IMG/VR virus record: IMGVR_UViG_3300027792_000307
Span: 866-64,865 of that record
DNA: 64,000 bases
Strand: one strand, 5' to 3'
DNA from: a virus
Lineage: Duplodnaviria > Heunggongvirae > Uroviricota > Caudoviricetes
Part shown: piece by piece, positions 5,763-62,658 of the stretch
How the letters are laid out: each line of letters begins with the position of its first letter
Numbering within the stretch: position 1 is the first letter of the stretch
The notes under the pieces: model-generated
Seen by the model: the letters and a program-made list of their open reading frames with translations, nothing else
Told to the model about the DNA's origin: nothing
Database searches by the model: none
Program-made: the position numbers and the translations under genes

Positions 5763-6811
5763 TAATCTCTTTCTTCTTTTTTTTTTACTTTTAGCCGTGC
5801 TACTTGCTAACACTTCTACTAATTACTTTTATATTTAAATGAGGCGATTCCAGATTCTACGTACAATATAATATATTAATAAGTTAGTACAAATTAGTAC
5901 AGTAGTTAGTACATAATACCATTGGAAAGAGTTATAATAATTGCCTCTATTATAAGAGTAAAAGGCAACTTTTTGGTATAAAATTGCAGTATATTATGCT
6001 GTATTACACCACTATATTCCTGATTTTTCTTCGAGAGACGAAAGGTTTAAGTACTCGATGATTTCGTTCTCGGAGAGATTTCCGAAAGACTTATAAACTT
6101 TTCGGTTGCGAAATCCGTACGGGTTGAGAACAAGTTTTCTGTTTGTTTGTTATTTTTGATATGGTTACTTTAGTATCCATATTATAACTTATACATACAT
6201 ACTTGAGTCGCATTAAAATTACCTTACCCAATCATTCGCACCTTTTAGATATACTTATACCTAAAAGGGGTTGATTATAAAGGCAATTAGGTTATTCCTG
6301 TATTGGACAGGTTTTTAATTAATCTAATGAGGGTTATAATCAATTCGGGAAAATTAGTAGATATTAATCCCATTAGGTTTTGGTAATACCTATTTCAACG
6401 CAAAATCTACACAGTAATACAGTATAACAAGACTTCGGAAAGGATTATAATTACTTTATTGGGTTGTTATCCAACCCTCTAATCCTTTTCTACATAATTT
6501 AAAAATGCTTACCCAATTGTAAAATTGGGTGTTAAATCAACAGAAGGTGAAGGAAAAAAGGGAATAGGGTTGCGTTTATCCTATGGTATAGGTTAGGTTA
6601 CATTACCATTAATGGTTCGATTCCATTAAAAATCCTCGAGATTTTATCCTATTCCTAAATATTATTTAAATTCAGAAGCATAATATGAGCATAAAATCAT
6701 TTTTAGAGCAAAAAGCACAAGATATAGGCAAAATTGAAAGGAAAATTGATATATATAGGCACAAAATAATTGATTGCCAAAAAGAGATAGAAGAATTAAG
6801 GAAGGATTAAA
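5763..6811. other. AT-rich structured non-coding region with repeated GGAAAG(R)-N-TTATAA (BRE/TATA-like) motifs and multiple hairpins
   Basis: ggaaagagttataataa (5927), cgaaaggtttaagtac (6041), ccgaaagacttataaacttttcgg hairpin (6086), ggttgattataaaggc (6270), gggttataatc (6329), ggaaaggattataatt (6434), ggaatagg..cctattcc 8-bp inverted repeat (6561/6645) enclosing a tRNA-like T-arm AATGGTTCGATTCCATT (6610-6626). Confidence 0.6.
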
Positions 6812-9177: not shown

Positions 9178-9401
9178 AATACGCAAAATTAACTATGAAA
9201 CAACCAAGCGATTCAATAAAAATAAAATGGGTTGAAATAATTAAGGTTTTAAAAGACGATAGATTTCCAACTTGTATAAAAGGAAAATGCCTAATGTGTA
9301 ATGCAGATAAAGAAGATGTTGGAAGAACCTTTTATTATGATAAAAAATATTGGGATGTAATTACTTTAACAAAAGAGCAGGTTTTTATGGAGATGATATG
9401 A
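9174..9401 (+). CDS. small protein with stereotyped LE(V/I)L-junction C-terminus (array member; tail VFMEMI)
   Basis: ATGA overlap at both ends; 3' end gtttttatggagatgatATGA. Confidence 0.55.
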   Translation: MKYAKLTMKQPSDSIKIKWVEIIKVLKDDRFPTCIKGKCLMCNADKEDVGRTFYYDKKYWDVITLTKEQVFMEMI

Positions 9402-11358: not shown

Positions 11359-11520
11359 ATGGAAATAGATATATGGGCGTTATTCATAACATTATTTACG
11401 GTTGCTTTATTGCAGGAATTAATCATAAAACCATTGGTAGAATTTCTAAAGGAATACCTGAAAAAATACTACAAGAAATCTAAACGGCACATTAAGAAAT
11501 TAATTAAGGAGGAATTATGA
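11359..11520 (+). CDS. small hydrophobic membrane protein (53 aa)
   Basis: Hydrophobic N-terminal helix; ends ggaggaattATGA overlapping next start. Confidence 0.4.
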   Translation: MEIDIWALFITLFTVALLQELIIKPLVEFLKEYLKKYYKKSKRHIKKLIKEEL

Positions 11521-11765
11521 GGAAAGTAAAACCACAGGATATAAAGGTTGGACAAATATATTTACAGATTATTGGTTTCACTAAATTGTATAAAAAAAGA
11601 ATTAGTAAAGGAAATGAAGATGAAATATGGGGTAATTATATTAAAACAGATAGACCAAATTGTTATCCAAAAGGAGAACATGGATTTGTAAGGTATGATA
11701 GTGGTGCAGAATTTTATCTATTAAATGAAAAGGAAATTGGGGAATTATTTTTTGAGGAAATATAA
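11517..11765 (+). CDS. small protein, array member (paralog A of a recent tandem duplicate; MRKVKPQDIKVGQIYLQ..)
   Basis: First 18 aa almost identical to next gene; tail LFFEEI. Confidence 0.65.
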   Translation: MRKVKPQDIKVGQIYLQIIGFTKLYKKRISKGNEDEIWGNYIKTDRPNCYPKGEHGFVRYDSGAEFYLLNEKEIGELFFEEI

Positions 11766-12016
11766 TGAGGAAAGTAAAACCACAGGATATAAAGGTTGGG
11801 CAAATATATCTACAGGTTATGGGAGAAACTAAACTATATAAGAAACGAATTAATAAAGGAAAAAAAGATGAAATATGGGGATATTATATTACATCAAACA
11901 AAAACTATTTTTTTCCTAAAGGAGAAGATGGTTTCGTACCCTATAATAGTACCGATGCTAAATTTTATCTATTAAATGAAAAGGAAATCGGAGAATTGTT
12001 TTTGGAGGAATTATAA
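11765..12016 (+). CDS. small protein, array member (paralog B of tandem duplicate)
   Basis: MRKVKPQDIKVGQIYLQ.. and ..FYLLNEKEIGELF.. shared with 11517..11765; tail LFLEEL. Confidence 0.65.
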   Translation: MRKVKPQDIKVGQIYLQVMGETKLYKKRINKGKKDEIWGYYITSNKNYFFPKGEDGFVPYNSTDAKFYLLNEKEIGELFLEEL

Positions 12017-16029: not shown

Positions 16030-17160
16030 ATGGAAGTATTTGAAGTAAACCACCAAGAACTTAAAGCATTCATTAAGAAATGCTATACAAGCAAATTGCC
16101 ACTACATATGTGGGGCACTATTGGAATTGGAAAATCTGAATCTGCCGATGAGGTTGCTAATGAATTGGCAGGGGAGTTCCAACGAAAATATGTTAAATGG
16201 AACAAACTGACGAAAGAGGAAAAGCACAAACTCGCAGAAAATCCAAAGGATTATTTCTTCTTTATGGATATTCGGTTGTCTCAATTAGACCCGAGTGATT
16301 TAAGAGGATTACCTGCACTGAATGGGCACGATACAGTAGAGTGGAAAATTCCATTCTGGTTACACGTAGCAACCCTGAAAGATGCCAAAGGAATTATCTT
16401 CTTTGATGAGATGAACCTTTCTCCACCGAGTATTCAAGCGAGTGGGTATCAGGTAATTCTTGACCGAGCATTAGGAGAGGTTACATTAGCAGACGGTGTT
16501 GGTGTAATCGCAGCAGGTAACAGGATTACAGATAAAGCAAATGTCTATGATATGGCAAAACCACTACAAAATCGGTTCAACCACGTTACCTTGAAAGTTC
16601 CAAACATCGAGGCATGGACATCTTGGGCAATTACCAAAGGAGTTGATACAAGAATAATTACATTCCTTAATGCACGACCACAACTTTTAATGGGTCGGTT
16701 GGATATGAAATCTGGAGATGTGGCATTTCCAACTCCGAGGACTTGGGGTAAATATTGTAGTGCCTTGATTAACGGAGAGACTGGGTTGGATAATCTTATG
16801 CAATTAGCCAGTGCATCTGTTGGAACAGGGGCAGCGACAGAATTTATCAGTTTCATTAAGTTGCAAAAGCAAATCAACTTACAGGAATTGCTAAAGAAAC
16901 CTGAAACGGCAACCAACATCAAGGAAACCGATATGTTATATTCGTTGGTCGGTTTAGTTTCAGAGTGGTATGATGCACATACCAAAGCCGATGACTTGGA
17001 TAAAGTTCTACAAATATCCAACAACCTACAGCCAGAGTTTGCTATCCTTATGCTTCGTATGTGTAAGGAACGACACCTGCCACAATTCAGACGAGATGTA
17101 AACAAATTGGATTCGTGGAAAATAACGTGGAAAAAGTATGGGAAATACTTTGAAATTTAA
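16030..17160 (+). CDS. MoxR-like AAA+ ATPase (AAA_5 type)
   Basis: Walker A GTIGIGKSE, Walker B IIFFDEMNL, sensor-1 AAGN read directly. Partner VWA protein lies 1.2 kb downstream, as in MoxR-VWA pairs. Confidence 0.75.
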   Translation: MEVFEVNHQELKAFIKKCYTSKLPLHMWGTIGIGKSESADEVANELAGEFQRKYVKWNKLTKEEKHKLAENPKDYFFFMDIRLSQLDPSDLRGLPALNGHDTVEWKIPFWLHVATLKDAKGIIFFDEMNLSPPSIQASGYQVILDRALGEVTLADGVGVIAAGNRITDKANVYDMAKPLQNRFNHVTLKVPNIEAWTSWAITKGVDTRIITFLNARPQLLMGRLDMKSGDVAFPTPRTWGKYCSALINGETGLDNLMQLASASVGTGAATEFISFIKLQKQINLQELLKKPETATNIKETDMLYSLVGLVSEWYDAHTKADDLDKVLQISNNLQPEFAILMLRMCKERHLPQFRRDVNKLDSWKITWKKYGKYFEI

Positions 17161-18391: not shown

Positions 18392-19669
18392 ATGGTAGAA
18401 TTAAGTCCGTTGGATAAGTTAATTAAAGCAAGAATAGACCTATTAAGAGAAAAACCGTTCTTCGCATTTTTGGCAAACCACTTGGAGTTTGTGGAAGTTA
18501 CTGAGAAAGAATGCCCTACAATGGGGGTTGATATAAAGGGAACTATGGTATATAATCCCAACTTTGTAGCAAAACTTTCAAAGGAAGAATGTAAAGGGGT
18601 TCTTTGCCACGAGGTTATGCACTGTGCACTGGAACATATGAAACGGCACAGAGGAAAGAAATTGGATTTATGGAATGTTGCAGGTGATACAGTTATTAAT
18701 ACAATCCTTTCAGCAGATGGATTAACCTTGCCTAAAGATGGAATTATGCCTCACAACGGTGATATAACTCTATTTGGAATTAGGATAACTGAAACCGATA
18801 AGAAATGTGCCGAGGAAGTTTACGATGCTGTATATTCAAAGTTAAGGCAGAAAGATATAAAGGATTTGGAGAAATTCTTAAAGAGCCACGCTGATAGTAA
18901 AAAGGGATTTGATGTTCATATATACCCTGCACCTGGAGATGGAGAAGATGGGGACCAAAAAGGAAATGGAAAACAAGGAGAAGGATTATCTGGAGGATTA
19001 GCAGGGGAATTAAAGACAGATAAAGGAAAGAACTGGGGAAAATTAATGGTTGATGCTTGTACCTTTGCCAGAAACCAAGGTAAACTACCAGCAGGAATGG
19101 AAAGAATCCTCGGGGATTTATTGAAAACTGATTTGGATTGGAGAGGGTTACTCTATAGATATATCACAAACCAAATACCTGTGGATTATTCTTGGGCACA
19201 ACCATCAAAGAAATCCTATTCTGTTGGAACATATCTCCCGTCTGTTACAAAGGAATCCCTTGATTTAGTAATTGCCATAGATACCTCTGGGAGTATTTCC
19301 AAAACAGAGTTAGATGAATTTGCTTCGGAATTATGTGGTATTATTAATTCCTTTGCGAATGTTTCTCTTACGATTATAGATTGCGATTGCGAGATTAATT
19401 CTGTGGTTAAGAAACAACGAGCAACAGTAACCGACATTACAGATTTAAAATTAAGAGGGGGAGGAGGTACTTCACACATCCCAGTATATCGTTGGTTGGA
19501 CGAGAATCTTCCTAATGCCAAATTGGTTATCTGTTTTACGGATGGATATACATCGTTTCCGAAGTCAAGTTCAATCCCAACATTATGGGTAGTCGCAGGA
19601 AGCAGCAGAATGGAGGAAAACAAATTCCCATTCGGAGATGTGGTTTACCTTGATAGGAAAGAAAATTAG
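18392..19669 (+). CDS. putative metallopeptidase domain + von Willebrand factor A domain protein (DUF2201-like partner of MoxR ATPases)
   Basis: HExxH (CHEVMHCALEH) in the N-terminal half and a MIDAS-type motif DTSGSIS in the C-terminal half, read directly. Confidence 0.7.
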   Translation: MVELSPLDKLIKARIDLLREKPFFAFLANHLEFVEVTEKECPTMGVDIKGTMVYNPNFVAKLSKEECKGVLCHEVMHCALEHMKRHRGKKLDLWNVAGDTVINTILSADGLTLPKDGIMPHNGDITLFGIRITETDKKCAEEVYDAVYSKLRQKDIKDLEKFLKSHADSKKGFDVHIYPAPGDGEDGDQKGNGKQGEGLSGGLAGELKTDKGKNWGKLMVDACTFARNQGKLPAGMERILGDLLKTDLDWRGLLYRYITNQIPVDYSWAQPSKKSYSVGTYLPSVTKESLDLVIAIDTSGSISKTELDEFASELCGIINSFANVSLTIIDCDCEINSVVKKQRATVTDITDLKLRGGGGTSHIPVYRWLDENLPNAKLVICFTDGYTSFPKSSSIPTLWVVAGSSRMEENKFPFGDVVYLDRKEN

Positions 19670-23480: not shown

Positions 23481-24155
23481 ATGGAAAAGAAACAAAAAAC
23501 AATAGTTGCGAGTACTTCCATAGTGGCAGCAGCCATAGTGGTTCTCGCAGCATTGGGAGGGCAGGTGTTTGGCACAGACACAACTGTGAGTGTTATCGTG
23601 CCTACAGGAACATATAGAATTGGAGATACAATTACTGTATCAATTCAATGTTCTCCGACAAGACCAGTAAAAGCATGGGAATTGAATGTAAATTTCAATA
23701 AGAATGTTTTGAATGCCAATGCGGTGTTTGAAGGAAATTTCTTTGTTGGTAAAACAACATTCTTTAATGCGGGAACTATACAGAATTCCAATGGAAAAAT
23801 TATCAACATATATGATTTGATAATTGGACCCGGAAATGTAACAACCCAAGGAAATTTAATTACAATATCTTTTACTGCGGTTGGGTATGGAACTAGTGCC
23901 GTAGAAATATACAATGTTGGACTTACAAATGAGACAATGTATATTCCAATTAGTATAGTTAATTCCACAACAATAGTATATTCTCCATATGATATGAATG
24001 CGGATGGTGTGGTTGATATGCTAGATTTAGTTGATGTTGCTGGGCACTATGGAGAAACTGGAACATCTGGTTGGATTATGCAGGATATAAACAAAGATGG
24101 GAAGATTTCGGTTATGGACTTGGTGTTAATATCTACTCATTGGGGTAGTTATTAA
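23481..24155 (+). CDS. secreted/membrane-anchored cohesin-like domain + type-I dockerin protein
   Basis: N-terminal hydrophobic segment; cohesin-like start TVSVIVPTGTYRIGDTITVSIQC; two textbook dockerin Ca-binding repeats DMNADGVVDMLDLVDV and DINKDGKISVMDLVLI at the C-terminus. Confidence 0.65.
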   Translation: MEKKQKTIVASTSIVAAAIVVLAALGGQVFGTDTTVSVIVPTGTYRIGDTITVSIQCSPTRPVKAWELNVNFNKNVLNANAVFEGNFFVGKTTFFNAGTIQNSNGKIINIYDLIIGPGNVTTQGNLITISFTAVGYGTSAVEIYNVGLTNETMYIPISIVNSTTIVYSPYDMNADGVVDMLDLVDVAGHYGETGTSGWIMQDINKDGKISVMDLVLISTHWGSY

Positions 24156-24652
24156 TGAGGAAGTGGTTGTTGGTCTCTGTAGGAATAGTAGGGATGGTGA
24201 TTATGGTTGTGATGAGTGGCTGTTTTGAGCCACCCACCACCACCAACACAGTATATATTTATCCACAAAGTTCCTATAAAGCAGTTGAGGAGCAATTTAC
24301 CATATCAATTAAGTGTGATTCAATACAGGAAATCAATGGATTTGAAACCTCACTAAAATTTAATAAAACCCATATAAGAGTAATTAGTTGGGAGTGGGAG
24401 GATTTCTTTTCCACAGATTCATTTAAGAGTGTGCCTATTATAGACAATGTAAATGGAATTGTATTTGATATCTACGCAGTTTCTATAGGATTGGATGGAG
24501 CAAAATCAAACAAACCAATAATAACCTTTACTTGTATTCCTATATCAACTGGAACAAGTAAAATTGAACTATATAATACAAACATTGTTAATGCCTCTGG
24601 AATTATTCCGTGTGAATTAATCAATGGAACGTTAATTTCAGCTTATTCGTAG
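24155..24652 (+). CDS. membrane-anchored cohesin-like domain protein (paralog of N-terminal domain of previous gene)
   Basis: TM helix; ..FTISIKCDSIQEINGFETSLKFNKTHIRVISW.. parallels ..ITVSIQCSPTRPVKAWELNVNFNKNVLNANAV.. Confidence 0.55.
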   Translation: MRKWLLVSVGIVGMVIMVVMSGCFEPPTTTNTVYIYPQSSYKAVEEQFTISIKCDSIQEINGFETSLKFNKTHIRVISWEWEDFFSTDSFKSVPIIDNVNGIVFDIYAVSIGLDGAKSNKPIITFTCIPISTGTSKIELYNTNIVNASGIIPCELINGTLISAYS

Positions 24653-34322: not shown

Positions 34323-35372
34323 ATGCAAATTCTATCAATTTTTTATGATAATATTGGAATTGGACGTGCTTTAATATTAGGAGATTCTGGAAAAACATAT
34401 AATACAAATGTAGACTTAGAAATGAATAAGGCGTGGTGTTCATGTGATTCTTATGTTTATAACAAAGACAAAGCATGTAAACATATCTCTTACTTGCTTA
34501 TGAATTTGGAGTTTGACAAAATGGTTAATAAAATTGATTCATTAGATAAATTATCCACAGGTTCAGATACAATTGATAAATTACTTGGTGGGGGTATTCC
34601 TTATGGAACTATCACCACGATTTTTGGAGAACCAAAGTGTGGCAAGTCTATGTTAGCATATCAAGTTGGAATCGCTAATATAGATAAAACAAACCTAAAA
34701 ACCCTGTATATAGATACAGAAGGAATTAGGAAGCAGGACTTTTTTTCAATCATAAATAAATTTAACTCAAGGTATAATGTGCCTCCGAAGGAATTAACGG
34801 ATAAATTCCAATATATAACAAGCCTGGCAGATTTAAAGTTAAAATCAATCCAGAAGTTATTTCAGATATTTGGTTTTCTGCCTATGATTGAAATGTCCAA
34901 AGGTGGAAGATATACAGTCCAGTTTGAAACCTGTGCTCCAACGATTAAAGAAGAGGAATGGAAGAATTATAGTATGATTATTATTGATTCTATGACAGCT
35001 CCTCTTAAAATGGCTATCGGTTCAAGCACGGCAAATCTTCCAACGAGAGCACAATTCACTGAACGGTTATTTGGTTTATTGATTGAAATAGCGATGCGAC
35101 ATAATATAGCGGTTATTGTAAACCACCACGCTTCAGTTGACCCGATGAATTTATTTGGTAGGGATTTTGGTAAGGCTTGGGGTGGAGACCCTATTCTATA
35201 CAATTCAAAATATGCCTTATTAATACTGGATGCAGATGCAAAGACCCGTAAGGAAACAAATTGGAACCACGAGGCTAGACGGGTTATGTTGATACGAAGA
35301 CCGGACGAACAAGATACGAACCAGAAATATCCGGTTAGATTAATGAAGGATTATGGGTACACAGACAAGTAA
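34323..35372 (+). CDS. SWIM-type zinc finger fused to RecA/RadA/KaiC-like ATPase
   Basis: N-terminal CSCDSYVYNKDKACKHI (CxC..CxH); Walker A GEPKCGKS; Walker B MIIIDS. Confidence 0.65.
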   Translation: MQILSIFYDNIGIGRALILGDSGKTYNTNVDLEMNKAWCSCDSYVYNKDKACKHISYLLMNLEFDKMVNKIDSLDKLSTGSDTIDKLLGGGIPYGTITTIFGEPKCGKSMLAYQVGIANIDKTNLKTLYIDTEGIRKQDFFSIINKFNSRYNVPPKELTDKFQYITSLADLKLKSIQKLFQIFGFLPMIEMSKGGRYTVQFETCAPTIKEEEWKNYSMIIIDSMTAPLKMAIGSSTANLPTRAQFTERLFGLLIEIAMRHNIAVIVNHHASVDPMNLFGRDFGKAWGGDPILYNSKYALLILDADAKTRKETNWNHEARRVMLIRRPDEQDTNQKYPVRLMKDYGYTDK

Positions 35373-35691
35373 TAGTTATTATCCAAGCAATATTATTATA
35401 AATCCGGCAGTTTGCCAAAGTTTAATGAGTGGTAACTATACTTATACTAATACTTCATCAAATATTAGTTCTGGATTTTTTACGATATCTGGTAATAGTA
35501 GTGCCTACGGAAATTGGGAACCACCTGCAATTCCAGAATCCCAACAAAGAATAGAAATCACATTTAAAGATGGTGGAACTATGGTTATGTCTTTAAAAGA
35601 CTATACTATATTCGTTGCTTTGCACGGAAAATCTCCGTCTGAATGCACGAAGCAAGAATATGAGGAATTAAGTTTTGGAGAGAGAGTATGA
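35353..35691 (+). CDS. hypothetical protein
   Basis: 112-aa ORF overlapping upstream gene end by 20 nt. Confidence 0.45.
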   Translation: MGTQTSNSYYPSNIIINPAVCQSLMSGNYTYTNTSSNISSGFFTISGNSSAYGNWEPPAIPESQQRIEITFKDGGTMVMSLKDYTIFVALHGKSPSECTKQEYEELSFGERV

Positions 35692-35813
35692 GAATAATAA
35701 GAAGTTGTCCAAATTGCCACAGAAAGTTAGATATACAGCATATGGTTTATGCTTGCCCATTTTGTGGTTGTGCAATAATCGATGAAGAAGGATACGGAGG
35801 ATTGGTAATATAG
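35688..35813 (+). CDS. small zinc-ribbon protein (41 aa)
   Basis: ATGA-overlap start; CPNCHRK..CPFCGC. Confidence 0.4.
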   Translation: MRIIRSCPNCHRKLDIQHMVYACPFCGCAIIDEEGYGGLVI

Positions 35814-36082
35814 GAAACATAAAAGACAACAAAATTAAAAAATATGCCCGAGAAATTATAGAGAAGTTTCCAGACAGAGTTTCTCTGGACTTTAACAAGA
35901 ATAAACTGCTTCTAAATGAAATCTGCGATATCCACGGAAAAATCTATAGAAACAGAATTGCTGGTTGTATAGTTTCAGAATTGAAAACCCAAGGAAATAC
36001 CTACGAAAATATTAAACGGGAACTTTATGAGAATAAAAATAAGCGGAAACGAAGGAAAGTGAAGGAAGAAGGAATTATATGA
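35810..36082 (+). CDS. ribosomal protein eS17 (S17e) homologue; no ATG/GTG/TTG start, apparent ATA (or ATT) initiation 9 nt after GGAGG
   Basis: Translation IGNIKDNKIKKYAREIIEKFPDRVSLDFNKNKLLLNEICDIHGKIYRNRIAGCIVSELK.. matches the conserved S17e pattern (MGxIR..ARE.IEK(F/Y)..(S/T).DF..NK....E......K.RNRIAG(Y/C)(I/V)). Missed by the ORF track; stop overlaps next ATG (attatATGA). Confidence 0.6.
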   Translation: MGNIKDNKIKKYAREIIEKFPDRVSLDFNKNKLLLNEICDIHGKIYRNRIAGCIVSELKTQGNTYENIKRELYENKNKRKRRKVKEEGII

Positions 36083-36786
36083 GAGATAAATTAAGTAAAT
36101 TTCGAGGCAAATTATCTTGTCCTCGTTGTAATGCTATGTGCGATTCGGAAGAACTATTAGATAGACACAGAGAATATCTCCACGGAGAATACAAATCTAA
36201 CGACGAAAAATACAAACGATATGAGAAGACAACTAAAAGCAAGCGGAAATTAGCAATCAATATAGGAAAGCACCCGCCAAGGAAGGAATGGATTCTAAAA
36301 ACCCCAACCAAACAGATGTTTATCTGGGATTGTTGGGATGGTTGCTACTATCAATATCATAAAGGAATTGGATTAATAGATGACCTCGATACAGTTGTTG
36401 TGGACGAGAGTTCAGATTACTTCAAAACTTTGATGAAGATAATCAACAAGGAATTGCCTTTGAGCAAGATAGTTCCTCAACCGATGAAAACCAAAGCCCA
36501 CGGATTGCCTTGGATTCCATTACCAGCGAAGATGAAGAAACTGCCAAAGGATTGTATACTTTGTGGAAGTTGCCACCAAATTATTAAAGTTATTGGTCCG
36601 CCTATAACTAATTTAACATTATGCCCCAATTGTGGGAGGAAGTTACCATATGAAGAGCCAAAAAGTAAGAAAAATAGACCCAAACAGGTGCAACAAAAAG
36701 CTCCTGGAATACAGCCAAAACAAGATAGAAAACGGGTGGGTAAAAAGAAACCTACTAAAGTGGAAGCAAGACAGCATCGCAAATAA
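36079..36786 (+). CDS. C2H2-zinc-finger protein with basic C-terminal tail
   Basis: CPRCNAMCDSEELLDRHREYLH (C2H2); C-terminal K/R/Q-rich tail overlaps next ORF. Confidence 0.55.
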   Translation: MRDKLSKFRGKLSCPRCNAMCDSEELLDRHREYLHGEYKSNDEKYKRYEKTTKSKRKLAINIGKHPPRKEWILKTPTKQMFIWDCWDGCYYQYHKGIGLIDDLDTVVVDESSDYFKTLMKIINKELPLSKIVPQPMKTKAHGLPWIPLPAKMKKLPKDCILCGSCHQIIKVIGPPITNLTLCPNCGRKLPYEEPKSKKNRPKQVQQKAPGIQPKQDRKRVGKKKPTKVEARQHRK

Positions 36787-40620: not shown

Positions 40621-41145
40621 ATGAGTTATAGACCTGTATGTGATGTCTGGCTTTTAGCTAGACCAAAAGTGAAATACTATGGAAGTTATCCAAATGGATT
40701 TCTTGAGCGAGCGAGAACATTACTTGGATGTTCAACAGATGACCCCATACTCCACGTATGTGGAGGAATGGCAAAGGCATATCCTAATAAGAAAGCCTAC
40801 GGACCAAATGACAAAACCTTGGATATAGACCCAGCATTACAACCAGATTTCTGCCAGGATGTAAAGAAAGGAATTCCTCACGGAGATTGGAAGGCAATTC
40901 TAATAGATCCACCTTATACATTAGATGATGCTAGGCACTATAACCAATTCAACGGATTTTTACCAGAACCCAACGAATTAGTTCGGAACGCGATTAATTC
41001 AGTGGCAATCGGTAGATGTGTCGGATTATTACATTATATCGTTCCTGCTTGCCCAAAAAATGCCAAAGAGGTCGCATTAGTTGCGGTTTGTATGGGACAC
41101 AATAATAGAATACGGTGTTTTTCCGTATTTAGGAGAACTGAATGA
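40621..41145 (+). CDS. DPPY-motif DNA amino-methyltransferase (N6A/N4C type), short
   Basis: AILIDPPY read directly (motif IV of amino-MTases); VCGGMA possible SAM motif. Confidence 0.5.
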   Translation: MSYRPVCDVWLLARPKVKYYGSYPNGFLERARTLLGCSTDDPILHVCGGMAKAYPNKKAYGPNDKTLDIDPALQPDFCQDVKKGIPHGDWKAILIDPPYTLDDARHYNQFNGFLPEPNELVRNAINSVAIGRCVGLLHYIVPACPKNAKEVALVAVCMGHNNRIRCFSVFRRTE

Positions 41146-41813
41146 AAGAAAGTAAATTCAACCCGATGGGTATGAAAAAGCAAGATTTGGCTGTGCTATT
41201 CACAGAACATTGTAAGCACGGACATTTATACGCTGAACACCCTGCCTGTTACCTGGCAGAACACGAAGACAAACTTAAGATAGGATTTTTGGACATCGAG
41301 ACCTCCAATTTGAAGGCAGATTTTGGAATTATGCTATCTTATTGTATCAAAGAAGCAAACAACAAGAAAATCCTTGGACGAGCAATAAATAAGAAAGAAC
41401 TCGACAATGGAACCCTCGATAAGGATTTAGTTAAGGAATGTATAGCGGATGTAGGAAAATTTAACCTAATAGTTACCTACTATGGCACGAAGTTCGATGT
41501 CCCATTTATTCGCTCGAGGGCATTATATTGGGATATAGAGTTTCCAAAGTTTGGTAGTCATAATCATAAAGACTGCTATTATATGGTCCGTAATAGATTA
41601 TGTATCCATAGAAACAGAATGGAAGATGCGGCGAGATTACTCGGCATAGAAGGAAAGAACCACATAGATGGATATTATTGGATTACAGCATTAACTGGAA
41701 ATCCGAAGGCACTAGCATATATTCTGGACCACAACGAAAGAGATGTAGAAGTTCTCGAGAAAGTATACTATAAAATGAAGGACTTCTCAAGAGATGTTAG
41801 TAAGAGTATCTAA
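41142..41813 (+). CDS. RNase H-like 3'-5' exonuclease (YprB/PolB-exonuclease-like)
   Basis: IGFLDIETSNL (Exo I-like DIET) and YYGTKFDVPFI (YNG..FD.P-type motif). Confidence 0.6.
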   Translation: MKESKFNPMGMKKQDLAVLFTEHCKHGHLYAEHPACYLAEHEDKLKIGFLDIETSNLKADFGIMLSYCIKEANNKKILGRAINKKELDNGTLDKDLVKECIADVGKFNLIVTYYGTKFDVPFIRSRALYWDIEFPKFGSHNHKDCYYMVRNRLCIHRNRMEDAARLLGIEGKNHIDGYYWITALTGNPKALAYILDHNERDVEVLEKVYYKMKDFSRDVSKSI

Positions 41814-45568: not shown

Positions 45569-45994
45569 ATGATAAAAATAAACCCAACAAATTATACACT
45601 AAATTATCCACTTGCAGGTGGAGGAAACTGTGGATTTAAATTAGAAACATTGGAAGATATAAATCTTGTAACAGGAACGGGTCCAGTAGATATAGATATA
45701 GGAAATATGATATTAAGAGATTGTTATATAACTGGATATATTAAAAATTGTAATATGGTTAGATATGAAATTGTAGGGTCGGACGAAGCTTGTAATATCC
45801 CTGGAAGAATTGAAGTTGTTATAGAAGGAGTATTTATGTCCTGCGATGAGCAAAAAAAGGTTAAATTCAAGGGAGAAAAGAAATATAGAAATATATGGAA
45901 AACTGATTATGAAAAAGCTACAGAAATACTAGGAAAATTATCTAAAGTTACTTATGAAGAATATGAGAGACAGGTGTTTTCGGAGAGAATATGA
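45569..45994 (+). CDS. hypothetical protein
   Basis: Start at first ATG after upstream stop. Confidence 0.5.
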   Translation: MIKINPTNYTLNYPLAGGGNCGFKLETLEDINLVTGTGPVDIDIGNMILRDCYITGYIKNCNMVRYEIVGSDEACNIPGRIEVVIEGVFMSCDEQKKVKFKGEKKYRNIWKTDYEKATEILGKLSKVTYEEYERQVFSERI

Positions 45995-48513
45995 TAGAAC
46001 CTATACCAGATTTATTGAAAATGGATTTCGATGGAGATTCTTTAGTATATGTAAATGATAATGAATTCTACTATGGAGACCAAGTTGATAAGAAACTATT
46101 GGAAGACCTAAAGAACAAAGATATACAGGTTTATGGCGGGTATTATGAATTCTATAAGTATAAGAAATCCCCACTAATCTTTTTACTTTGTAGGGGTAAG
46201 TTATCTGGTAAGATTAAAGTTAAGATAGAGAATTTCCTGCCGTATTGTTATATATCTAAAAATGACGGGGAATATAAAACCTACCTTGGAGAACCCTGTG
46301 AGAAGATTTCATTCCAATCATCGCATCCATCGAGGGTTGCCTTCTTTAGGGATTTAAGGAAGAGGAAAGGTTACCCACTGCCACACGAGGCAGATATCCT
46401 TTTCGTGAGGCGATTCCTTTGTGATGTCTACGATATGTTCAAATCAACAGAACCAATCAAACCAAGGGTAGTTATAGTGGATATAGAGACAAATCACCCA
46501 GTTTCAGAGGATATTATATCTTATTGTATAAATGATATGGAAAATGACTTGGTATATGATTCCAAGTTCAATAGTAACTGCCTGGTAATGGCATTGGATT
46601 TATACCAGAAACTGCAAGAATATGACTGGATGACTGGTTGGAACATAAAGTTTGATAAAGACATATTGAATAAAGAATTGCTTCAAATTAAGGACGTTAC
46701 TGATTACATACTCAAGAACATAGGGATGTTTACTAAAGAAGAAATAATTGCCACCTACTCGATAAACACATTCTATAAGGATAAAATAGCCGAATTACTG
46801 GAATCGCTCTCAAACTATGGATATATAGTAGAATTGGAAGAAAAAAAGCTATATATAGGTGCTCCATTCGATCCTGCCATAGAACATTCCATTTCAGATA
46901 TAGATTTACTTACGGTGTCAAAGAAAATGTATGGACAGGAGATTCGTGGAAACTGGACATTAGGTAATGTCGGTCATAGAATCTGCGGCATAGATAAAGC
47001 CTATATAGGTGGAAAACACATTAGAGACCTTTCCGAGGAGGAACTATTCATATATAATACGCTGGATACAATAATCCCAGAGATTGTGGATAACTTCCTT
47101 GGGGGTTTAGAAGCTCATTTGATGCTAGCATGGTCTTTACATTGTATCATAGAAGAAACACAGATAACTGCGGTAGTGAATGATATTGCATTGATTAGAG
47201 CCTATCACAAAGCTGGACTCGTTCTTCCTTCCAGAGATTATGGAAAAGAGAAGGACGATGATGAACCTAAATATAAGGCAGCAGAACCAGATGCCAAGCC
47301 AGGAGTTTACAAAGGAATTATTGCAACGGATTTATCTCACGCCTATCCATTTGCGGTTATATCTAAAAATATATCCCCTGAAACAAAGGATTTAAATGGG
47401 GATAATATAGTGAAATACAAAGATCGAGAAGGAAACGAGAAAGAGATACATTTCAATAATAACAATAGTGTATTTATAGAAACACTTAAAGATATTATGA
47501 CGGAGAGAGCCAAAGCAAAGAAGATGATGGAATCGCTGGAAAAAGGAACACAGGAATGGCGTAAATATAAGTATATTGACTTTGCCTTGAAGACTCAAGC
47601 GGCAGCATTTTCTCACGGTATCTTTGGATGGACAAATTCAAGGATGGTAGATTATGAAGTTGCGGATGCAATTACTGGTATTGTAAGAAATTTATTAGAT
47701 GAAATTAAGAAATCCTGTGAAGCTATAGGTAGGGAATGGATTTACGTACATACTGATAGTTGCTATGTAAATTCACTAAAAGAGGAAAAAGATAAACTTC
47801 TAACATATTTGAATGAACAAATTAGCAAGTATTGTGAAGGTTATTTGGTTCAACCGAATCTCGACTTTAAGAATTTCTATCCAATCGGTTATATTCATTC
47901 CAAGGCAAGAAATGTTCTTGTTCCAGAGGATGGAGATATCTATAATTCTGAGACTTGGGATATTACAGGAATGGATTTCCTCCGCAGTGAAACCCCAGAA
48001 CCTATTGGAGATATAGAAATAAAACTAATATCTATGGTGTTCGAAGGACATACACGGGAAGAACTTATCAATAGCTTACGAGAAATGGTTCAAAATCTTG
48101 TATCTATTGATTCTACGTTGCTTGGGACAATGAAACCCCTACATAAACCTATAACAGCATATGGTAAAATGAAGAAAGATGGAACCTGGGGCGGTGTGCC
48201 ATTTCACATAAAAGCGTTACAGAAAGCAAACGTGGAATACGGGTTTCAAGTTAATCTAAATGAAAAGTTTATGGTGATACCTATTATATCGGATGAAACA
48301 GAAGGAAAGAGAGTTATTAAGAGAAAGAGGGCATTTATTGCGTATAGCCCAGAAACTGGTTTGCCCAGTTCATATAGAATTGATTTTGAGAACTATTTAA
48401 GAAGTAATCTATGGGGAAAAATCGATTCTCTGTTTAATTGTAAACCAAAGGAGTTGGAAAAAGAAATTATGAATGATGATGTGAAGATGTGTTTATTTTC
48501 AGAGTTGATTTAG
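45991..48513 (+). CDS. family B DNA polymerase (divergent)
   Basis: Exo I VVIVDIET; motif A ATDLSHAYPF; motif C YVHTDSCYV (DTD). Motif B not recognisable in canonical K..NS.YG form. Confidence 0.8.
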   Translation: MIEPIPDLLKMDFDGDSLVYVNDNEFYYGDQVDKKLLEDLKNKDIQVYGGYYEFYKYKKSPLIFLLCRGKLSGKIKVKIENFLPYCYISKNDGEYKTYLGEPCEKISFQSSHPSRVAFFRDLRKRKGYPLPHEADILFVRRFLCDVYDMFKSTEPIKPRVVIVDIETNHPVSEDIISYCINDMENDLVYDSKFNSNCLVMALDLYQKLQEYDWMTGWNIKFDKDILNKELLQIKDVTDYILKNIGMFTKEEIIATYSINTFYKDKIAELLESLSNYGYIVELEEKKLYIGAPFDPAIEHSISDIDLLTVSKKMYGQEIRGNWTLGNVGHRICGIDKAYIGGKHIRDLSEEELFIYNTLDTIIPEIVDNFLGGLEAHLMLAWSLHCIIEETQITAVVNDIALIRAYHKAGLVLPSRDYGKEKDDDEPKYKAAEPDAKPGVYKGIIATDLSHAYPFAVISKNISPETKDLNGDNIVKYKDREGNEKEIHFNNNNSVFIETLKDIMTERAKAKKMMESLEKGTQEWRKYKYIDFALKTQAAAFSHGIFGWTNSRMVDYEVADAITGIVRNLLDEIKKSCEAIGREWIYVHTDSCYVNSLKEEKDKLLTYLNEQISKYCEGYLVQPNLDFKNFYPIGYIHSKARNVLVPEDGDIYNSETWDITGMDFLRSETPEPIGDIEIKLISMVFEGHTREELINSLREMVQNLVSIDSTLLGTMKPLHKPITAYGKMKKDGTWGGVPFHIKALQKANVEYGFQVNLNEKFMVIPIISDETEGKRVIKRKRAFIAYSPETGLPSSYRIDFENYLRSNLWGKIDSLFNCKPKELEKEIMNDDVKMCLFSELI

Positions 48514-50335: not shown

Positions 50336-50872
50336 ATGATATGGATCTCAGCATTAAGTGATGTTGATTTTTGTGAATATAAATTTTATCATAAATATGT
50401 ATTGAAAACCCCAGAAACTGAGACAAACTCAATGAAAAGTGGAACTATTAATCATTATAATCTAAGTAAGAATCCGAATGGAGATAACGAAGTTTGGATT
50501 AAATATAAGGATGTGCGTGGAAAAATAGACCATATAGGTTATAGTGGAAATACATTAAGAGTTGTTGAATATAAGAGTAATAAAAATGGAGAAGTGTATG
50601 AAAGCCAAAAAATACAAGTAGCAGCCTATTGTTATTTATTGAAAAAGGAACTTCCTCTTCTATTTGAAAAATACGAAAAAGTTCAATGCGTAATTAGAAG
50701 GATTGGGGATTTAAAAGTTCTTTATGAAAGTGATTATACTCCTCTAAAAGAGATAGATATAGAAAAAAAGTTAGAAAAAGTCAATTATATATTAACTGGA
50801 GCCGAAATACCAGAAAAGGCTACAAACAAAAATAAATGTGCGAAATGCGGGTATAAGGATGTGTGTTGGTAA
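50336..50872 (+). CDS. Cas4/RecB-like PD-(D/E)xK nuclease with Cys cluster
   Basis: N-terminal Cys (DFCEYKF), core D..VVEYKS..QKIQVAAY, C-terminal CAKCGYKDVC (Cx2Cx5C) typical of Cas4 Fe-S nucleases. Confidence 0.6.
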   Translation: MIWISALSDVDFCEYKFYHKYVLKTPETETNSMKSGTINHYNLSKNPNGDNEVWIKYKDVRGKIDHIGYSGNTLRVVEYKSNKNGEVYESQKIQVAAYCYLLKKELPLLFEKYEKVQCVIRRIGDLKVLYESDYTPLKEIDIEKKLEKVNYILTGAEIPEKATNKNKCAKCGYKDVCW

Positions 50873-50873
50873 T

Positions 50874-52013
50874 ATGCCTAAAAAATTAACAATTGAAGAA
50901 ATGCAGAGAATTGCTGAATCTAGAGGTGGAAAATGTCTTTCTGAAAAATATATTAATAATAGGACTAAATTAAAGTGGCAGTGTGAGAAAGGCCACATTT
51001 GGGAAGCAGCTCCTAGAAGAAGTTGGTGTCCTTATTGTAGTGAGAATAAAAATGAGGATTTTAATATGGAATTTGATGATATGTCTAAACAAATAATTGA
51101 AGGATGTTTATTAGGTGATGGATGTATTGACGGTTATATTAAAAGAAAAAACCGTACATTTAGAATTTGTTGTATTAAAAAAGAATATATAGAATATCTA
51201 AAAACTAATTTTGAAAAAAATGGAATCAAAGTAGGTAAATTAATCACATATAAAATAAAAGATAGAGATTTTGGCGATTATATATCAAAATGTAAAGATC
51301 AATATAGTATAAGTTTATATGTCTATAAAGAAATAAATAAATTCAGGGATATGTGGTATAAAAATAAAAAGAAAATTATTCCCTCGGATTTAAAATTAAC
51401 ATCAATTAATTTATTACATTGGTTTATTGGTGATGGTAGTTTTACATTTAGAAAAAATAAAAAAGGATGTTGGGCTCACATACAACTATCAACAAATTGT
51501 TTTTCTTTATCGGATATAAATAATTTATTAAATAAATTAAAAGTAGATTTAAATCTTAATTTTAATAAATATGAAGTTAATCCAGGACAATACAAATTAT
51601 CTATTAGTAATTACAAAGAAATATGTAAATTTTTTGATATTATAAAAGATTGCCCAAAAGAATTTGTAAATGATTATGGATATAAATGGCCTACAGAAGA
51701 TATATTTAATTATTTAAGAGAGGCACAACTTCCCAAAAAACAACTTATATTTTATATATGCGATATTTGTAAAGAGATGATATCTGTAAGAAGTGAAACA
51801 GATTTAAAGCGTCATGAGAAAGGAATTTGTCAGAAATGTAACTGTAATATTATGAGAGAAAAAACTATAGATAAACAAAAAGAAAAAAATATAGAAAGAG
51901 ATTCTTTATATTATAGTCTGTATGAATTTGGATATAGTAATAAAGAAATAAAAAATATATTAGATATTAAAAATGATTCTTATGAAGGTTGGAAATATTA
52001 TAGAGGATTATAA
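50874..52013 (+). CDS. LAGLIDADG homing endonuclease with N-terminal zinc-ribbon-like domain
   Basis: LLGDGCIDGY and HWFIGDGSF (two LAGLIDADG motifs); N-terminal C..(n)..CPYC. Confidence 0.65.
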   Translation: MPKKLTIEEMQRIAESRGGKCLSEKYINNRTKLKWQCEKGHIWEAAPRRSWCPYCSENKNEDFNMEFDDMSKQIIEGCLLGDGCIDGYIKRKNRTFRICCIKKEYIEYLKTNFEKNGIKVGKLITYKIKDRDFGDYISKCKDQYSISLYVYKEINKFRDMWYKNKKKIIPSDLKLTSINLLHWFIGDGSFTFRKNKKGCWAHIQLSTNCFSLSDINNLLNKLKVDLNLNFNKYEVNPGQYKLSISNYKEICKFFDIIKDCPKEFVNDYGYKWPTEDIFNYLREAQLPKKQLIFYICDICKEMISVRSETDLKRHEKGICQKCNCNIMREKTIDKQKEKNIERDSLYYSLYEFGYSNKEIKNILDIKNDSYEGWKYYRGL

Positions 52014-60530: not shown

Positions 60531-60775
60531 AAGTAATTAATAAACTCTTTTGTCCGATTTGCGGTAAAGAAATGGATGCAGATTGTCATGCAGTTGAAGA
60601 TGGTGCAAAATGGATGGGTAATCCACCAGATTGGTCGCTTGATACAAAGAAAGCAAGAGATATAGATAATTGGATTTGTATAGACCATCCAGAACATAAG
60701 CATTGCGTGGTTTTTTGTAGAGAAGACATTAAAGATTGGTTAGAAGAAAAATATAAAGAGGAAAGTGGACTATGA
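60527..60775 (+). CDS. zinc-ribbon hypothetical protein
   Basis: CPICGKEMDADCH..(n)..H..HC. Confidence 0.5.
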   Translation: MKVINKLFCPICGKEMDADCHAVEDGAKWMGNPPDWSLDTKKARDIDNWICIDHPEHKHCVVFCREDIKDWLEEKYKEESGL

Positions 60776-62658
60776 AAGTGATAAAAAAAAGTGGTTTTCG
60801 CCAAGATTATCAGGTGGAAAAGATTAAGATAGCCTTACAGAAAACAGCAAAATCAATTAATGAGGAATTCAAGGAAGCAGATTGGAAAGAATTCAAACCA
60901 AGGGTTCTTGCTAGATTAGAACCTGTTATGGAAAATAGAGAGGAAATCTTCTTCTGGGAGATAGACGATGCAGTTATTGATTCATTACTTCGAAGCAGAT
61001 TCAAGGAGATTGCCAAGGAATATATCCAGTCACGAAGTAGGATTAGAAAGGATAAACTTAATGATTTGGGTCTTTCTCCAGTCGCTATGCAATTATTAAA
61101 GGAACGATATTTAAAGAAAGATGACAAAGAGGAACCCATAGAGACAGCGAAGGAAATGATGTGTAGAATTGCCACTGCAATTTCAAGTGTAGAAAAACAA
61201 CAAAAATTGAAGGAAGAATATTCAGAGAAGTTTACTAATATGCTCTGCAATTTGGAATTCCTCCCAAATAGTCCCTGCATTTTTAATGCTGGAACTGGTA
61301 GAAGAGGAACACTAGCAGCTTGCTTTGGTTATACAATAGAAGATTCTCTGGACTCTATATTTGAAACTCTTAAATTATCTGCTAAAACATTCCAAATGGG
61401 TGGAGGAGTAGGAATTAATATATCTAAATTAAGGGAAGCTGGTTGCAGTATAAAATCTTCCCACGGCACCTCTTCTGGGCCTATAGCATTCTTATATCTA
61501 TTTGATACTATGGTAGAAACAGTTAAATCTGGTGGAGCTCGTAGAGGGGCTATGTTGTCTATGATGCATTATACGCACCCAGATATAGAGAAGTTTATAG
61601 ATTGCAAGAATCAAACAAACCAATTAAATAATATGAATGTAAGCGTTCTTTTAGATGATAAATTTATAAAAGCTGTAGACAAGGACGAGTTAATTGTTCT
61701 AAAATCACCTAAAACTGGAAAAGAGATAAACGCAATTCCTGCAAGGCAGCTATTAGAATCTATAGCAATTCATATCTATAATACAGGTGAACCGGGAGTA
61801 TTGTTTGATGAGAATATAAATAAGGACAATCCAACACCACATCTTGGTCCTTTAGATGTAATTAATCCGTGCGGTGAAAGCCCTATGAGAGGAACTCCTG
61901 GAGAAAGTTGTAATCTTGGTTCTATAAATCTTACAAAATTTGTAAGAGATAAAGATGTAGACTGGGATAGACTCTCCGAAATAACCAAATTAGCAGTGAG
62001 ATTTTTAGATAATATGATAGATGCAAGTGCTTATCCATCGAAGATAGTAGAACAATCAGTTAAAGATACCAGAAAGATAGGATTAGGCATTATGGGATTT
62101 GCTGATTTGTTAATTATGATGGATATAAAATATAGCTCTAAACAGGCAATAGAAATGGCTGGTAAGATTACTTCTTTCATAAGTGATGTAGCAAGTCAAT
62201 ATTCTACAGAATTAGGAAAAGAAAAAGGAACCTATCTCGCTTATAAGGAAGGATATAAGAATAGAAGGAATTCTGTTTGCTGTATTGTTGCACCAACGGG
62301 AACTTTATCTCTATTAGCTGGATGCTCTTCTGGGATAGAACCGAACTTCTCAAAGGAATACACAAGAATTTTGGGCAACGAGATAGTAAAAATTGCTCAT
62401 CCGCTCAAGGATAATTCTTCATTCGAAATGACATATGATGTTCCGGTAGAGCAACATTTAGCAATACAAGCAGAAGTTCAGAAAAATATTGAGGGAGCAA
62501 TTAGTAAGACAATCAACGCACCAGAAAATATAACTGTAAGAGAAATAAAAGAATTGATAATCAAGGCCCATAAATTAGGAATTAAAGGATTTACTTTGTT
62601 CAGGCAGAATTGTAGTAGAGAAGCTCTTATAAAAGGATGTACGGAGTGTCAAATATGA
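60772..62658 (+). CDS. nrdJ: class II (adenosylcobalamin-type) ribonucleotide reductase with N-terminal ATP-cone
   Basis: ATP-cone start VIKKSGFRQDYQVEKIKIAL; NSPCIFNAG; GGGVGINISKLREAGCSIKSSHGTSSGPIAF; NPCGE and CNLGSINL active-site motifs; C-terminal Cys pair GCTECQI. No glycyl-radical motif. Confidence 0.75.
   Translation: MKVIKKSGFRQDYQVEKIKIALQKTAKSINEEFKEADWKEFKPRVLARLEPVMENREEIFFWEIDDAVIDSLLRSRFKEIAKEYIQSRSRIRKDKLNDLGLSPVAMQLLKERYLKKDDKEEPIETAKEMMCRIATAISSVEKQQKLKEEYSEKFTNMLCNLEFLPNSPCIFNAGTGRRGTLAACFGYTIEDSLDSIFETLKLSAKTFQMGGGVGINISKLREAGCSIKSSHGTSSGPIAFLYLFDTMVETVKSGGARRGAMLSMMHYTHPDIEKFIDCKNQTNQLNNMNVSVLLDDKFIKAVDKDELIVLKSPKTGKEINAIPARQLLESIAIHIYNTGEPGVLFDENINKDNPTPHLGPLDVINPCGESPMRGTPGESCNLGSINLTKFVRDKDVDWDRLSEITKLAVRFLDNMIDASAYPSKIVEQSVKDTRKIGLGIMGFADLLIMMDIKYSSKQAIEMAGKITSFISDVASQYSTELGKEKGTYLAYKEGYKNRRNSVCCIVAPTGTLSLLAGCSSGIEPNFSKEYTRILGNEIVKIAHPLKDNSSFEMTYDVPVEQHLAIQAEVQKNIEGAISKTINAPENITVREIKELIIKAHKLGIKGFTLFRQNCSREALIKGCTECQI

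Follow-up and report, generated by a model that had tools for sequence, protein, structure and literature searches.

A homologue of the ribosomal protein eS17 (S17e) that is probably translated from an AUA codon is encoded in the 64,000-nucleotide stretch analysed here (hereafter the window), which covers positions 866 to 64,865 of the IMG/VR record IMGVR_UViG_3300027792_000307. The gene has no canonical start codon, the position that corresponds to its initiator methionine (Met1) is kept among relatives together with a Shine-Dalgarno (SD)-like block in front of it, and its sequence is under purifying selection. Functional expression from the AUA, with or without coupling to the upstream gene, is the explanation that we consider probable.

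The open frame comprises 98 codons on the + strand (35786..36082), begins right after a TGA (35783-35785) and opens as RRIRRIGN-IGNIKDNKIKKYAREIIEKFPDRVSLDFNKNKLLLNEICDIHGKIYRNRIAGCIVSELK, the full reading up to the stop codon being RRIRRIGN-IGNIKDNKIKKYAREIIEKFPDRVSLDFNKNKLLLNEICDIHGKIYRNRIAGCIVSELKTQGNTYENIKRELYENKNKRKRRKVKEEGII. ATG is absent from it, the first TTG is codon 65 and the first GTG is codon 91. A previous description of this DNA, made from the letters and their open reading frames (ORFs) and referred to here as the sequence-only reading, had reported the frame, the TGA, an ATA at Met1, a GGAGG at close spacing, an overlapping upstream TAG and the lack of any ATG, GTG or TTG ahead of the conserved N-terminus; all these statements were verified. 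Its assertion that the frame escapes ATG-based gene calling was likewise borne out by the start-less gap in the window and by the inconsistent treatment of the relatives by gene callers. Among all + strand gaps in the gene map of the 64-kb window, only the eS17 gap holds a long start-less open frame, and a genome-wide use of non-canonical starts was rejected for that reason.

The identity of the protein was established by both sequence and fold. The frame matched the Pfam family PF00833 (Ribosomal_S17e) at 49.4 bits (E=5.4e-13; gathering score 22.8), with frame residues 10-93 aligned to profile positions 2-86, which together with the predicted fold upholds the homology proposed at first sight. 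A search of solved structures in the PDB returned 78 matches with E values of at most 1; the 60 that were listed are without exception archaeal or eukaryotic eS17 chains aligned from residue 1 or 2; the best was 6skf_At, the S17e of T. kodakarensis (E=9.5e-11), which sets IGNIKD opposite MGNIKQ from residue 1. Both the N-terminal (M/I)GNIKD and the RNRIAGC motif are present. The AlphaFold2 model reached a predicted local distance difference test score (pLDDT) of 83-88 over residues 11-60 and of 53-59 in the tail, which is helical at low confidence. In a Foldseek search with this model, all 50 listed matches were ribosome or pre-ribosome entries at probability 1.00, including 6skg_Bm, 6tmf_T, 6skf_At and 9fhl_S, of which 6skf_At and 6tmf_T are named eS17. 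The compact domain matched with a root-mean-square deviation of 0.7-2.4 Å across 52-63 residues, and the model could be superposed on the eS17 structures of T. kodakarensis, human and yeast, among others.

Cellular archaeal eS17 (6skf At, PF00833, NF002242) shares with this protein the three-helix domain, the M-G-(N/K)-(I/V)-(K/R) N-terminus and the RNRIAG(Y/C) motif. The viral homologue differs in its 60-residue core, which is 44-50% identical to proteins of Bathyarchaeia, Promethearchaeota and Methanomethylicota and evolves faster according to identity statistics, and in an extension of about 30 residues composed of N-x-Y-E-x-[IV]-[KR] and a basic tail. Further differences are its location in a virus-like genome, its non-canonical start codon and a score under the cut-off of the NCBIfam equivalog. 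The protein is best regarded as a genuine but diverged homologue and not as a routine orthologue.

Profile searches, which gathered about 1,500 homologues, separated about 20 clusters of viral-type S17e, scoring 108-146 bits, from cellular S17e, at 87 bits or less. A C-terminal motif, [NKD]-x-Y-E-x-x-[KR] after the RNRIAG helix and followed by a Lys/Arg-rich tail, was found in 22/22 viral-type sequences retrieved and in 0 of the approximately 250 other S17e-like proteins retrieved. Residues K10, A13, N31, K44, N48, A51 and G52 are invariant throughout the viral-type clade, and the best named cellular matches come from Methanomethylicota, Promethearchaeota, Thermofilum, Bathyarchaeia and Thorarchaeota. 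The view of the viral-type sequences as a group of their own rests on the bit-score gap, the exclusive C-terminal motif and a conserved gene order, which together point to a distinct clade.

A search of 5.8 billion proteins gave eight close relatives, and contigs from other routes were added; fifteen related contigs were examined, and the close family consists of 13 contigs plus the window (14 in all). The codon aligned with Met1 is ATG in L001, TTG in L002, L003 and L009, ATC in L004, L008 and L012, and ATA in six contigs, including L005, L006, L007, L019 and the window. Among the more distant members, L013 has TTG within a TTGA overlap and L015 has ATG. Thus, the occurrence of ATG at this site in relatives, which the sequence-only reading had proposed as a check, was found in L001 and the distant L015, the site being TTG, ATC or ATA elsewhere. 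Across the 14 close-family contigs the middle T is invariant, and the four codons are ATG and one-base neighbours of it only. Leucine at this site is always TTG, yet TTG makes up just 16% of the leucine codons of the window. At least five changes among AUG, UUG, AUC and AUA are required within the close family. Furthermore, a more remote S17e-like gene (PF00833, 35.8 bits; extension motif absent) in the region 11451-11787 of the 137,847-bp IMG/VR viral contig IMGVR_UViG_3300028920_000038 (L020) has ATA at the Met1 equivalent (11569) and GGAG 9 nt upstream.

The in-frame residues upstream of Met1 are unrelated between lineages (RRIRRIGN, RKKFGDEN, FLYRSWWS, GFN, D), and L005-7, L008 and L012, like the window, lack any canonical in-frame start from the preceding stop to the conserved N-terminus. 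Every relative has a GGAG/GGGG block 7-10 nt 5' of the Met1 codon, and it is kept whether the underlying stretch is the C-terminus of a zinc (Zn)-ribbon protein, the C-terminus of another protein or noncoding. In L004, the GGAG is spaced 8 nt from the ATC versus 0 nt from the GTG that the gene caller took as the start. SD-led initiation is general in the window, most of whose genes show GGAG, GGAGG or GAGGT 3-9 nt before the ATG. Gene callers were inconsistent: some relatives were started at the M or L of the homologous position, others were cut short, beginning at an internal Met (P0005, P0006) or at a codon further on (P0007), and others were extended upstream (P0004, P0181).

Selection on the gene was strong. 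The window and L008 differ by 21 synonymous and 3 non-synonymous changes, with a ratio of non-synonymous to synonymous divergence (dN/dS) of 0.02; the ratio is 0.05 between the window and L012 and 0.08 between L008 and L012. L005 and L006 differ by 9 synonymous changes and 1 non-synonymous change, and all pairs with measurable dS fall at dN/dS 0.02-0.15. Since dS within the ATA/ATC clade is 0.4-0.8, the gene has been kept intact long after the loss of ATG.

The sequence-only reading had left three options for expression, namely AUA initiation, a -1 frameshift and a recent ATG-to-ATA mutation; the codons of the relatives favour the first, and the other two found no support. Under AUA initiation, the frame 35810..36082 would be a functional gene for a diverged, virus-specific eS17 homologue, and its AUA would presumably be decoded as methionine by the initiator tRNA to give MGNIKD. 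The GGAGG 9 nt upstream would lead initiation at the AUA, and ribosomes terminating on the overlapping UAG would probably help, the ATAG being an analogue of ATGA coupling. Such a weak start would give only a small part of what an AUG start gives, and little in comparison with the neighbours, and the repeated changes of the codon suggest selection for a weak but present start, that is, for low dosage. By inference, the viral protein may take the place of host eS17, or add to it, on the 30S head when an archaeon is infected, and its basic C-terminal extension may add a virus-specific contact.

Two known arrangements resemble this one. The bacterial gene infC, which encodes IF3 and is the notable case among bacterial genes with AUU or AUA starts, is likewise a translation-machinery gene with a conserved near-cognate start (AUU) and a good SD sequence. 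It is autoregulated through the AUU, and in such bacterial genes the weak start codon sets or regulates dosage. Here, by contrast, the host is probably an archaeon, and the codon is not fixed, close relatives having AUA, AUC, UUG or AUG. Termination-reinitiation of the ATGA type, known from bacteria and archaea, also involves a four-base overlap of stop and start in a dense operon, but the overlap here is ATAG (AUA start, UAG stop) and not AUGA or GUGA.

Several points weigh against the view that a functional viral eS17 is started at the AUA. In those bacteria in which it was measured, initiation from AUA or AUC is very poor. Archaeal aIF1 discriminates against non-canonical start codons according to a review (PMC8211752), and no archaeal or viral precedent for such start-codon behaviour was found in the literature searched. 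L004 has an in-frame GTG 3 codons upstream of its ATC, and an ATG stands in frame 6 codons upstream in L020 and 20 codons upstream in L019, within the preceding ORF (the Zn-ribbon ORF in L020), so some relatives may make an N-terminally extended product from an upstream canonical codon. All three isoleucine codons are near-cognate, and isoleucine alone cannot separate a start codon from a hydrophobic sense codon. The NCBIfam equivalog NF002242 scored 62.2 bits, below its 72-bit cut-off. Additionally, the 64-kb window yielded no recognisable capsid, portal or terminase gene, and the viral identity (plausible from gene content and the IMG/VR relative) and the archaeal host (plausibly indicated by eS17, RadA, an XPF-type ERCC4-HhH nuclease and primase signals) rest on context.

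Coupling could also be the dominant route: ribosomes ending at UAG 35811-35813 would restart at the overlapping AUA, eS17 would be made as a fixed small fraction of the output of the upstream ORF, and the SD-like block would only tether the subunit. The ATAG overlap of the window recurs behind a different upstream gene in L005-7, a TTGA overlap is present in L013 and a GTGA overlap in L004, in L008, L012, L002 and L009 the start precedes the stop of the upstream gene by 11 nt, and ATGA coupling is the rule in the window. On the contrary, the starts of L019 and L003 lie 12-18 nt past the upstream stop, that of L001 follows a TAA without overlap, and a conserved SD-like block at optimal spacing fits ordinary initiation. 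Dominant reinitiation is unlikely in our estimation, and it is a variant of AUA initiation, not an exclusive alternative. The readings other than these two have, taken together, a slim chance of being right.

Initiation at another near-cognate codon, either ATT 35801 or ATA 35792, would give a product 3-6 residues longer. Both codons are in frame, and a duplication of IGN (ATT GGT AAT ATA GGA AAC) makes ATT 35801 resemble a second N-terminus. However, the GGAGG is followed at once (spacing 0) by ATT 35801 and comes after ATA 35792, in a genome where spacings are mostly 3-9 nt, and only the 35810 position is kept as ATG, TTG or ATH across lineages, which makes this reading very unlikely.

Slightly less credible still is a programmed -1 frameshift at the end of the Zn-ribbon ORF, which would produce a fusion of the Zn ribbon with eS17 and no independent initiation. 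The eS17 frame is indeed -1 relative to the Zn-ribbon ORF and open 8 codons before the ATA, and the pair is kept in many relatives. Nevertheless, the 28-nt overlap 35786-35813 (GAA GAA GGA TAC GGA GGA TTG GTA ATA TAG) has no X XXY YYZ heptamer, and the relatives share no common slippery site. A stimulatory structure is lacking as well, with 0 pairs in the RNAalifold consensus and a minimum free energy of -7.2 kcal/mol (z=0.53), no better than shuffles. Moreover, the Zn-ribbon ORF is missing in L001 and L005-7, although L005-7 retain the ATA; the eS17 frame of L003 opens just one codon ahead of its TTG; and the upstream in-frame residues are unconserved between lineages. These observations speak against the frameshift that had been offered as an option.

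That the gene is dead through a recent ATG-to-ATA mutation, or that the ATA is an assembly or sequencing error, would account for the missing canonical start and for the callers skipping the frame, but it is the reading with the poorest prospects, because ATA or ATC also occurs in 9 further contigs from different samples and assemblers and in separate lineages, the ATA/ATC contigs show zero frame disruptions, and dN/dS is 0.02-0.08 among genomes all without ATG; strong purifying selection and the independent assemblies exclude sequencing error and recent inactivation.

A genetic code in which ATA means methionine was also considered and rejected. The 31 ATA codons of the window's ribonucleotide reductase (RNR) gene align with Ile in 55%, Val in 14% and Met in 4% of cases, codon 4 of the eS17 gene is itself an ATA aligned to I/V, and all three stop codons are in use in the window. 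No tRNA or Rfam match at gathering thresholds was found in the window, and thus no such element that could explain decoding.

The coordinates of the eS17 gene and its neighbours are collected in Table 1.

Table 1. Features of the eS17 locus in the window.
Feature	Coordinates	Strand	Basis or remark
SWIM-RadA/Rad51-like ATPase, syntenic anchor	34323..35372	+	PF08423, E=1.1e-18
112-aa ORF of unknown function, between RadA and Zn ribbon	35353..35691	+	
41-aa Zn-ribbon ORF (CPNC...CPFC), directly upstream	35688..35813	+	TAG 35811-35813 overlaps the ATA (ATAG)
SD-like GGAGG	35796..35800	+	9 nt upstream of the ATA; direct reading
ATA at the eS17 Met1 position, proposed near-cognate initiation codon	35810..35812	+	Alignment to solved eS17 chains
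Coding sequence of the viral eS17 homologue, 90 aa plus TGA	35810..36082	+	PF00833, PDB, fold, dN/dS
Clade-specific C-terminal extension, residues 59-90: KTQGNTYENIKRELYENKNKRKRRKVKEEGII	35984..36079	+	Motif exclusive to viral-type sequences
235-aa Zn-finger ORF downstream	36079..36786	+	ATG overlaps the eS17 stop TGA 36080-36082 (ATGA)

The ATGA overlap with the downstream Zn-finger ORF shows that the eS17 frame belongs to a tightly coupled + strand gene run. In this gene order, eS17 stands downstream of a SWIM-RadA/Rad51 ATPase and usually right after a small CPNC...CPxC Zn-ribbon ORF. The SWIM match of the RadA-like ORF of the window reached 17.7 bits, under the 19.6-bit cut-off, and the 112-aa ORF had no Pfam or PHROG match. 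RadA lies upstream of the S17e gene also in L013, L015, L019 and L020, and the Zn-ribbon ORF precedes S17e in L008, L012, L019, L002, L009, L003, L013, L015 and L020; in L001 and L005-7 a homologue of the 112-aa ORF directly abuts the S17e gene. The RadA/Zn-ribbon/S17e order holds at only 35-39% S17e identity (L013, L015), and the module is present in the IMG/VR contig L020, where two tandem Zn-ribbon ORFs precede the S17e gene and the in-frame ATG mentioned above lies inside the Zn-ribbon ORF.

The Zn-ribbon ORF, of about 40 aa, is co-conserved directly upstream of S17e even in distant members. Its profile gave no significant specific match against solved structures. The non-significant matches include archaeal ribosome Zn-ribbon proteins (9fhl_C, E=0.009; 6skf_Az, E=0.38), and its identification as a known ribosomal Zn-ribbon protein was rejected on that account.

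Further searches extended the family little. Scans of IMG/VR with the S17e protein, the S17e alignment, PolB or RadA alone gave no matches; a metagenome scan returned two contigs only, both already known; a scan of genomes gave a single contig, which had been placed in a Pirellulales metagenome-assembled genome (MAG), probably by mis-binning; and cluster look-ups of the relatives added almost no taxonomy. L012 (CAYGVZ010000073.1), with an S17e 96% identical to that of the window, is binned in an 'uncultured Pirellulales bacterium' MAG, and a related RNR (P0301) is found in an 'Actinobacteria bacterium' MAG. These MAG contigs are probably mis-binned viral contigs.

As for the element itself, the window has 33% guanine plus cytosine (GC), and all its genes lie on the + strand. 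A class II RNR is present, as are a family-B DNA polymerase and, as a gene of its own, the exonuclease. Nucleases are represented by Cas4, an ERCC4-HhH enzyme and a free-standing LAGLIDADG endonuclease. A MoxR-like ATPase (phrog_1297, E=1e-77) is accompanied by a VWA/metallopeptidase protein, and the window further encodes GP88, a collagen-like protein that resembles tail fibres and a MazG-like pyrophosphatase (phrog_3301). A small-subunit primase match in the window was weak and sub-threshold, and a PriL-like primase subunit is present in L020. The RNR homology search returned a mixture of archaeal and bacterial neighbours at about 40% identity, which is not decisive for the host. eS17 is absent from bacteria. 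The terms 'virus-like' and 'archaeal host' in the sequence-only reading are plausible from the combination of phage-type and archaeo-eukaryotic genes, and they are less firmly shown than its other statements, given the lack of recognised capsid and terminase genes.

The Borgs of Methanoperedens (PMC9605863; bioRxiv 10.64898/2026.05.22.727314) share with the window a low GC content (about 33%), genes on one strand, an origin as extrachromosomal DNA of sediment archaea and occasional ribosomal proteins. Those listed for Borgs are S1, S2, S4, S7, S11, S12, S13, L11 and S3ae (PMC9605863; bioRxiv 10.64898/2026.05.22.727314). In contrast to Borgs, the window contains phage-type genes and a dense array of very short ORFs. 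A Borg was rejected as the identity of the element: perfect tandem repeats of the Borg kind are absent from the window, and the Borg ribosomal-protein lists do not include S17e.

Several other features of the window were recorded. Many short ORFs end in a shared junction, GA(A/G)NNNTT(T/C)NTGGAGNTN(A/T)T-ATGA, which encodes the peptide E-x-F-[LMV]-E-[LMI]-[IL] before the stop. Within it, a GGAG stands 5 nt ahead of the following ATG, which overlaps the stop as ATGA, and the junction precedes the gene starts at 9398, 9595, 10080, 20134, 20397, 20660, 20932, 28340, 28582, 28854, 29658, 37920, 38180, 39607, 39777 and 42017. An all-against-all blastp of the window gave only five two-member paralogue pairs, and the ORFs that bear the junction are either very diverged paralogues or carry convergent coupling junctions. 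A 224-aa protein (23481-24155) has cohesin and type I dockerin domains of the cellulosome type, and the neighbouring ORF (24155-24652) is its paralogue. Three stretches, 1065-1495, 2681-3406 and 5763-6684 (431, 726 and 922 nt), lack a plausible coding-strand ORF in an otherwise compact genome. Nothing in Rfam matched them at gathering thresholds, and they may serve as an origin or in regulation, or encode unknown RNAs.

The exonuclease (RNase_H_2 / DNA_pol_B_exo2, phrog_403; 41142-41813) and the family-B polymerase (45991-48513) are separate genes 4 kb apart, a split arrangement that was called unusual for the Bathyarchaeia virus Kunpengvirus (PMC10541130). The MoxR-like AAA ATPase and the DUF2201 metallopeptidase/VWA protein (16030-17160 and 18392-19669) are paired about 1.2 kb apart. 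The LAGLIDADG endonuclease gene, which adjoins Cas4, and the RNR gene were noted at 50838-52013 and 60772-62658. The close RNR homologues P0304, P0311, P0324 and P0327 are 300-400 residues longer and contain intein/LAGLIDADG domains, and the RNR of the window has none.

Virus-encoded ribosomal proteins are well established (Mizuno et al. 2019, PMC6375957; PMC9723584; PMC13157829). Earlier cases include bS21 in phages (PMC9723584), eL21 in haloarchaeal tailed viruses (PMC8651126), bL19 in Kunpengvirus (PMC10541130) and eL40 in giant viruses (PMC11499249); for archaeal viruses, L21e had been the sole ribosomal protein detected before the report of bL19 (PMC10541130). Like the gene described here, the known cases are single genes in large virus-like dsDNA genomes, under purifying selection and with a presumed role in modifying the host ribosome. 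Unlike them, the viral eS17 has a conserved near-cognate start, a feature not described in PMC6375957, PMC9723584, PMC8651126, PMC10541130 or PMC11499249. No report of eS17/S17e in a virus or Borg was found within the literature searched, and PHROGs v4 has no family that matches the viral eS17. The apparent novelty is a ribosomal protein family that had not been reported from viruses, whose gene order is conserved, whose C-terminal extension is specific to the clade and whose recurrent near-cognate start conceals it from gene callers.

By analogy with infC, one might go further and suppose that large uncultivated archaeal viruses (64 to 138 kb or more) use the recurrent AUA/AUC/UUG start as a regulatory device and the eS17 extension to remodel the 30S head for viral mRNAs. 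We hold this to be improbable, and we know of no link between eS17 and start-codon discrimination. If it were true, the stringency of start-codon selection in the infected cell would control how much viral eS17 is made and would in turn be affected by it, as an archaeal-virus analogue of the infC AUU circuit, and the co-conserved Zn-ribbon protein would possibly be a second ribosome-binding factor.

Viral ribosomal proteins blur the line between virus and cell, and nearly all known cases are bacterial-type proteins in phages. An eS17 clade of putative large archaeal viruses would add the head of the small subunit as a target, through a protein that archaea share only with eukaryotes. Surveys of viral ribosomal proteins undercount this eS17 because standard gene callers miss, truncate or extend the gene. 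Finally, the repeated use of AUA and AUC under purifying selection would be a comparative indication of near-cognate initiation or reinitiation in an archaeal system.

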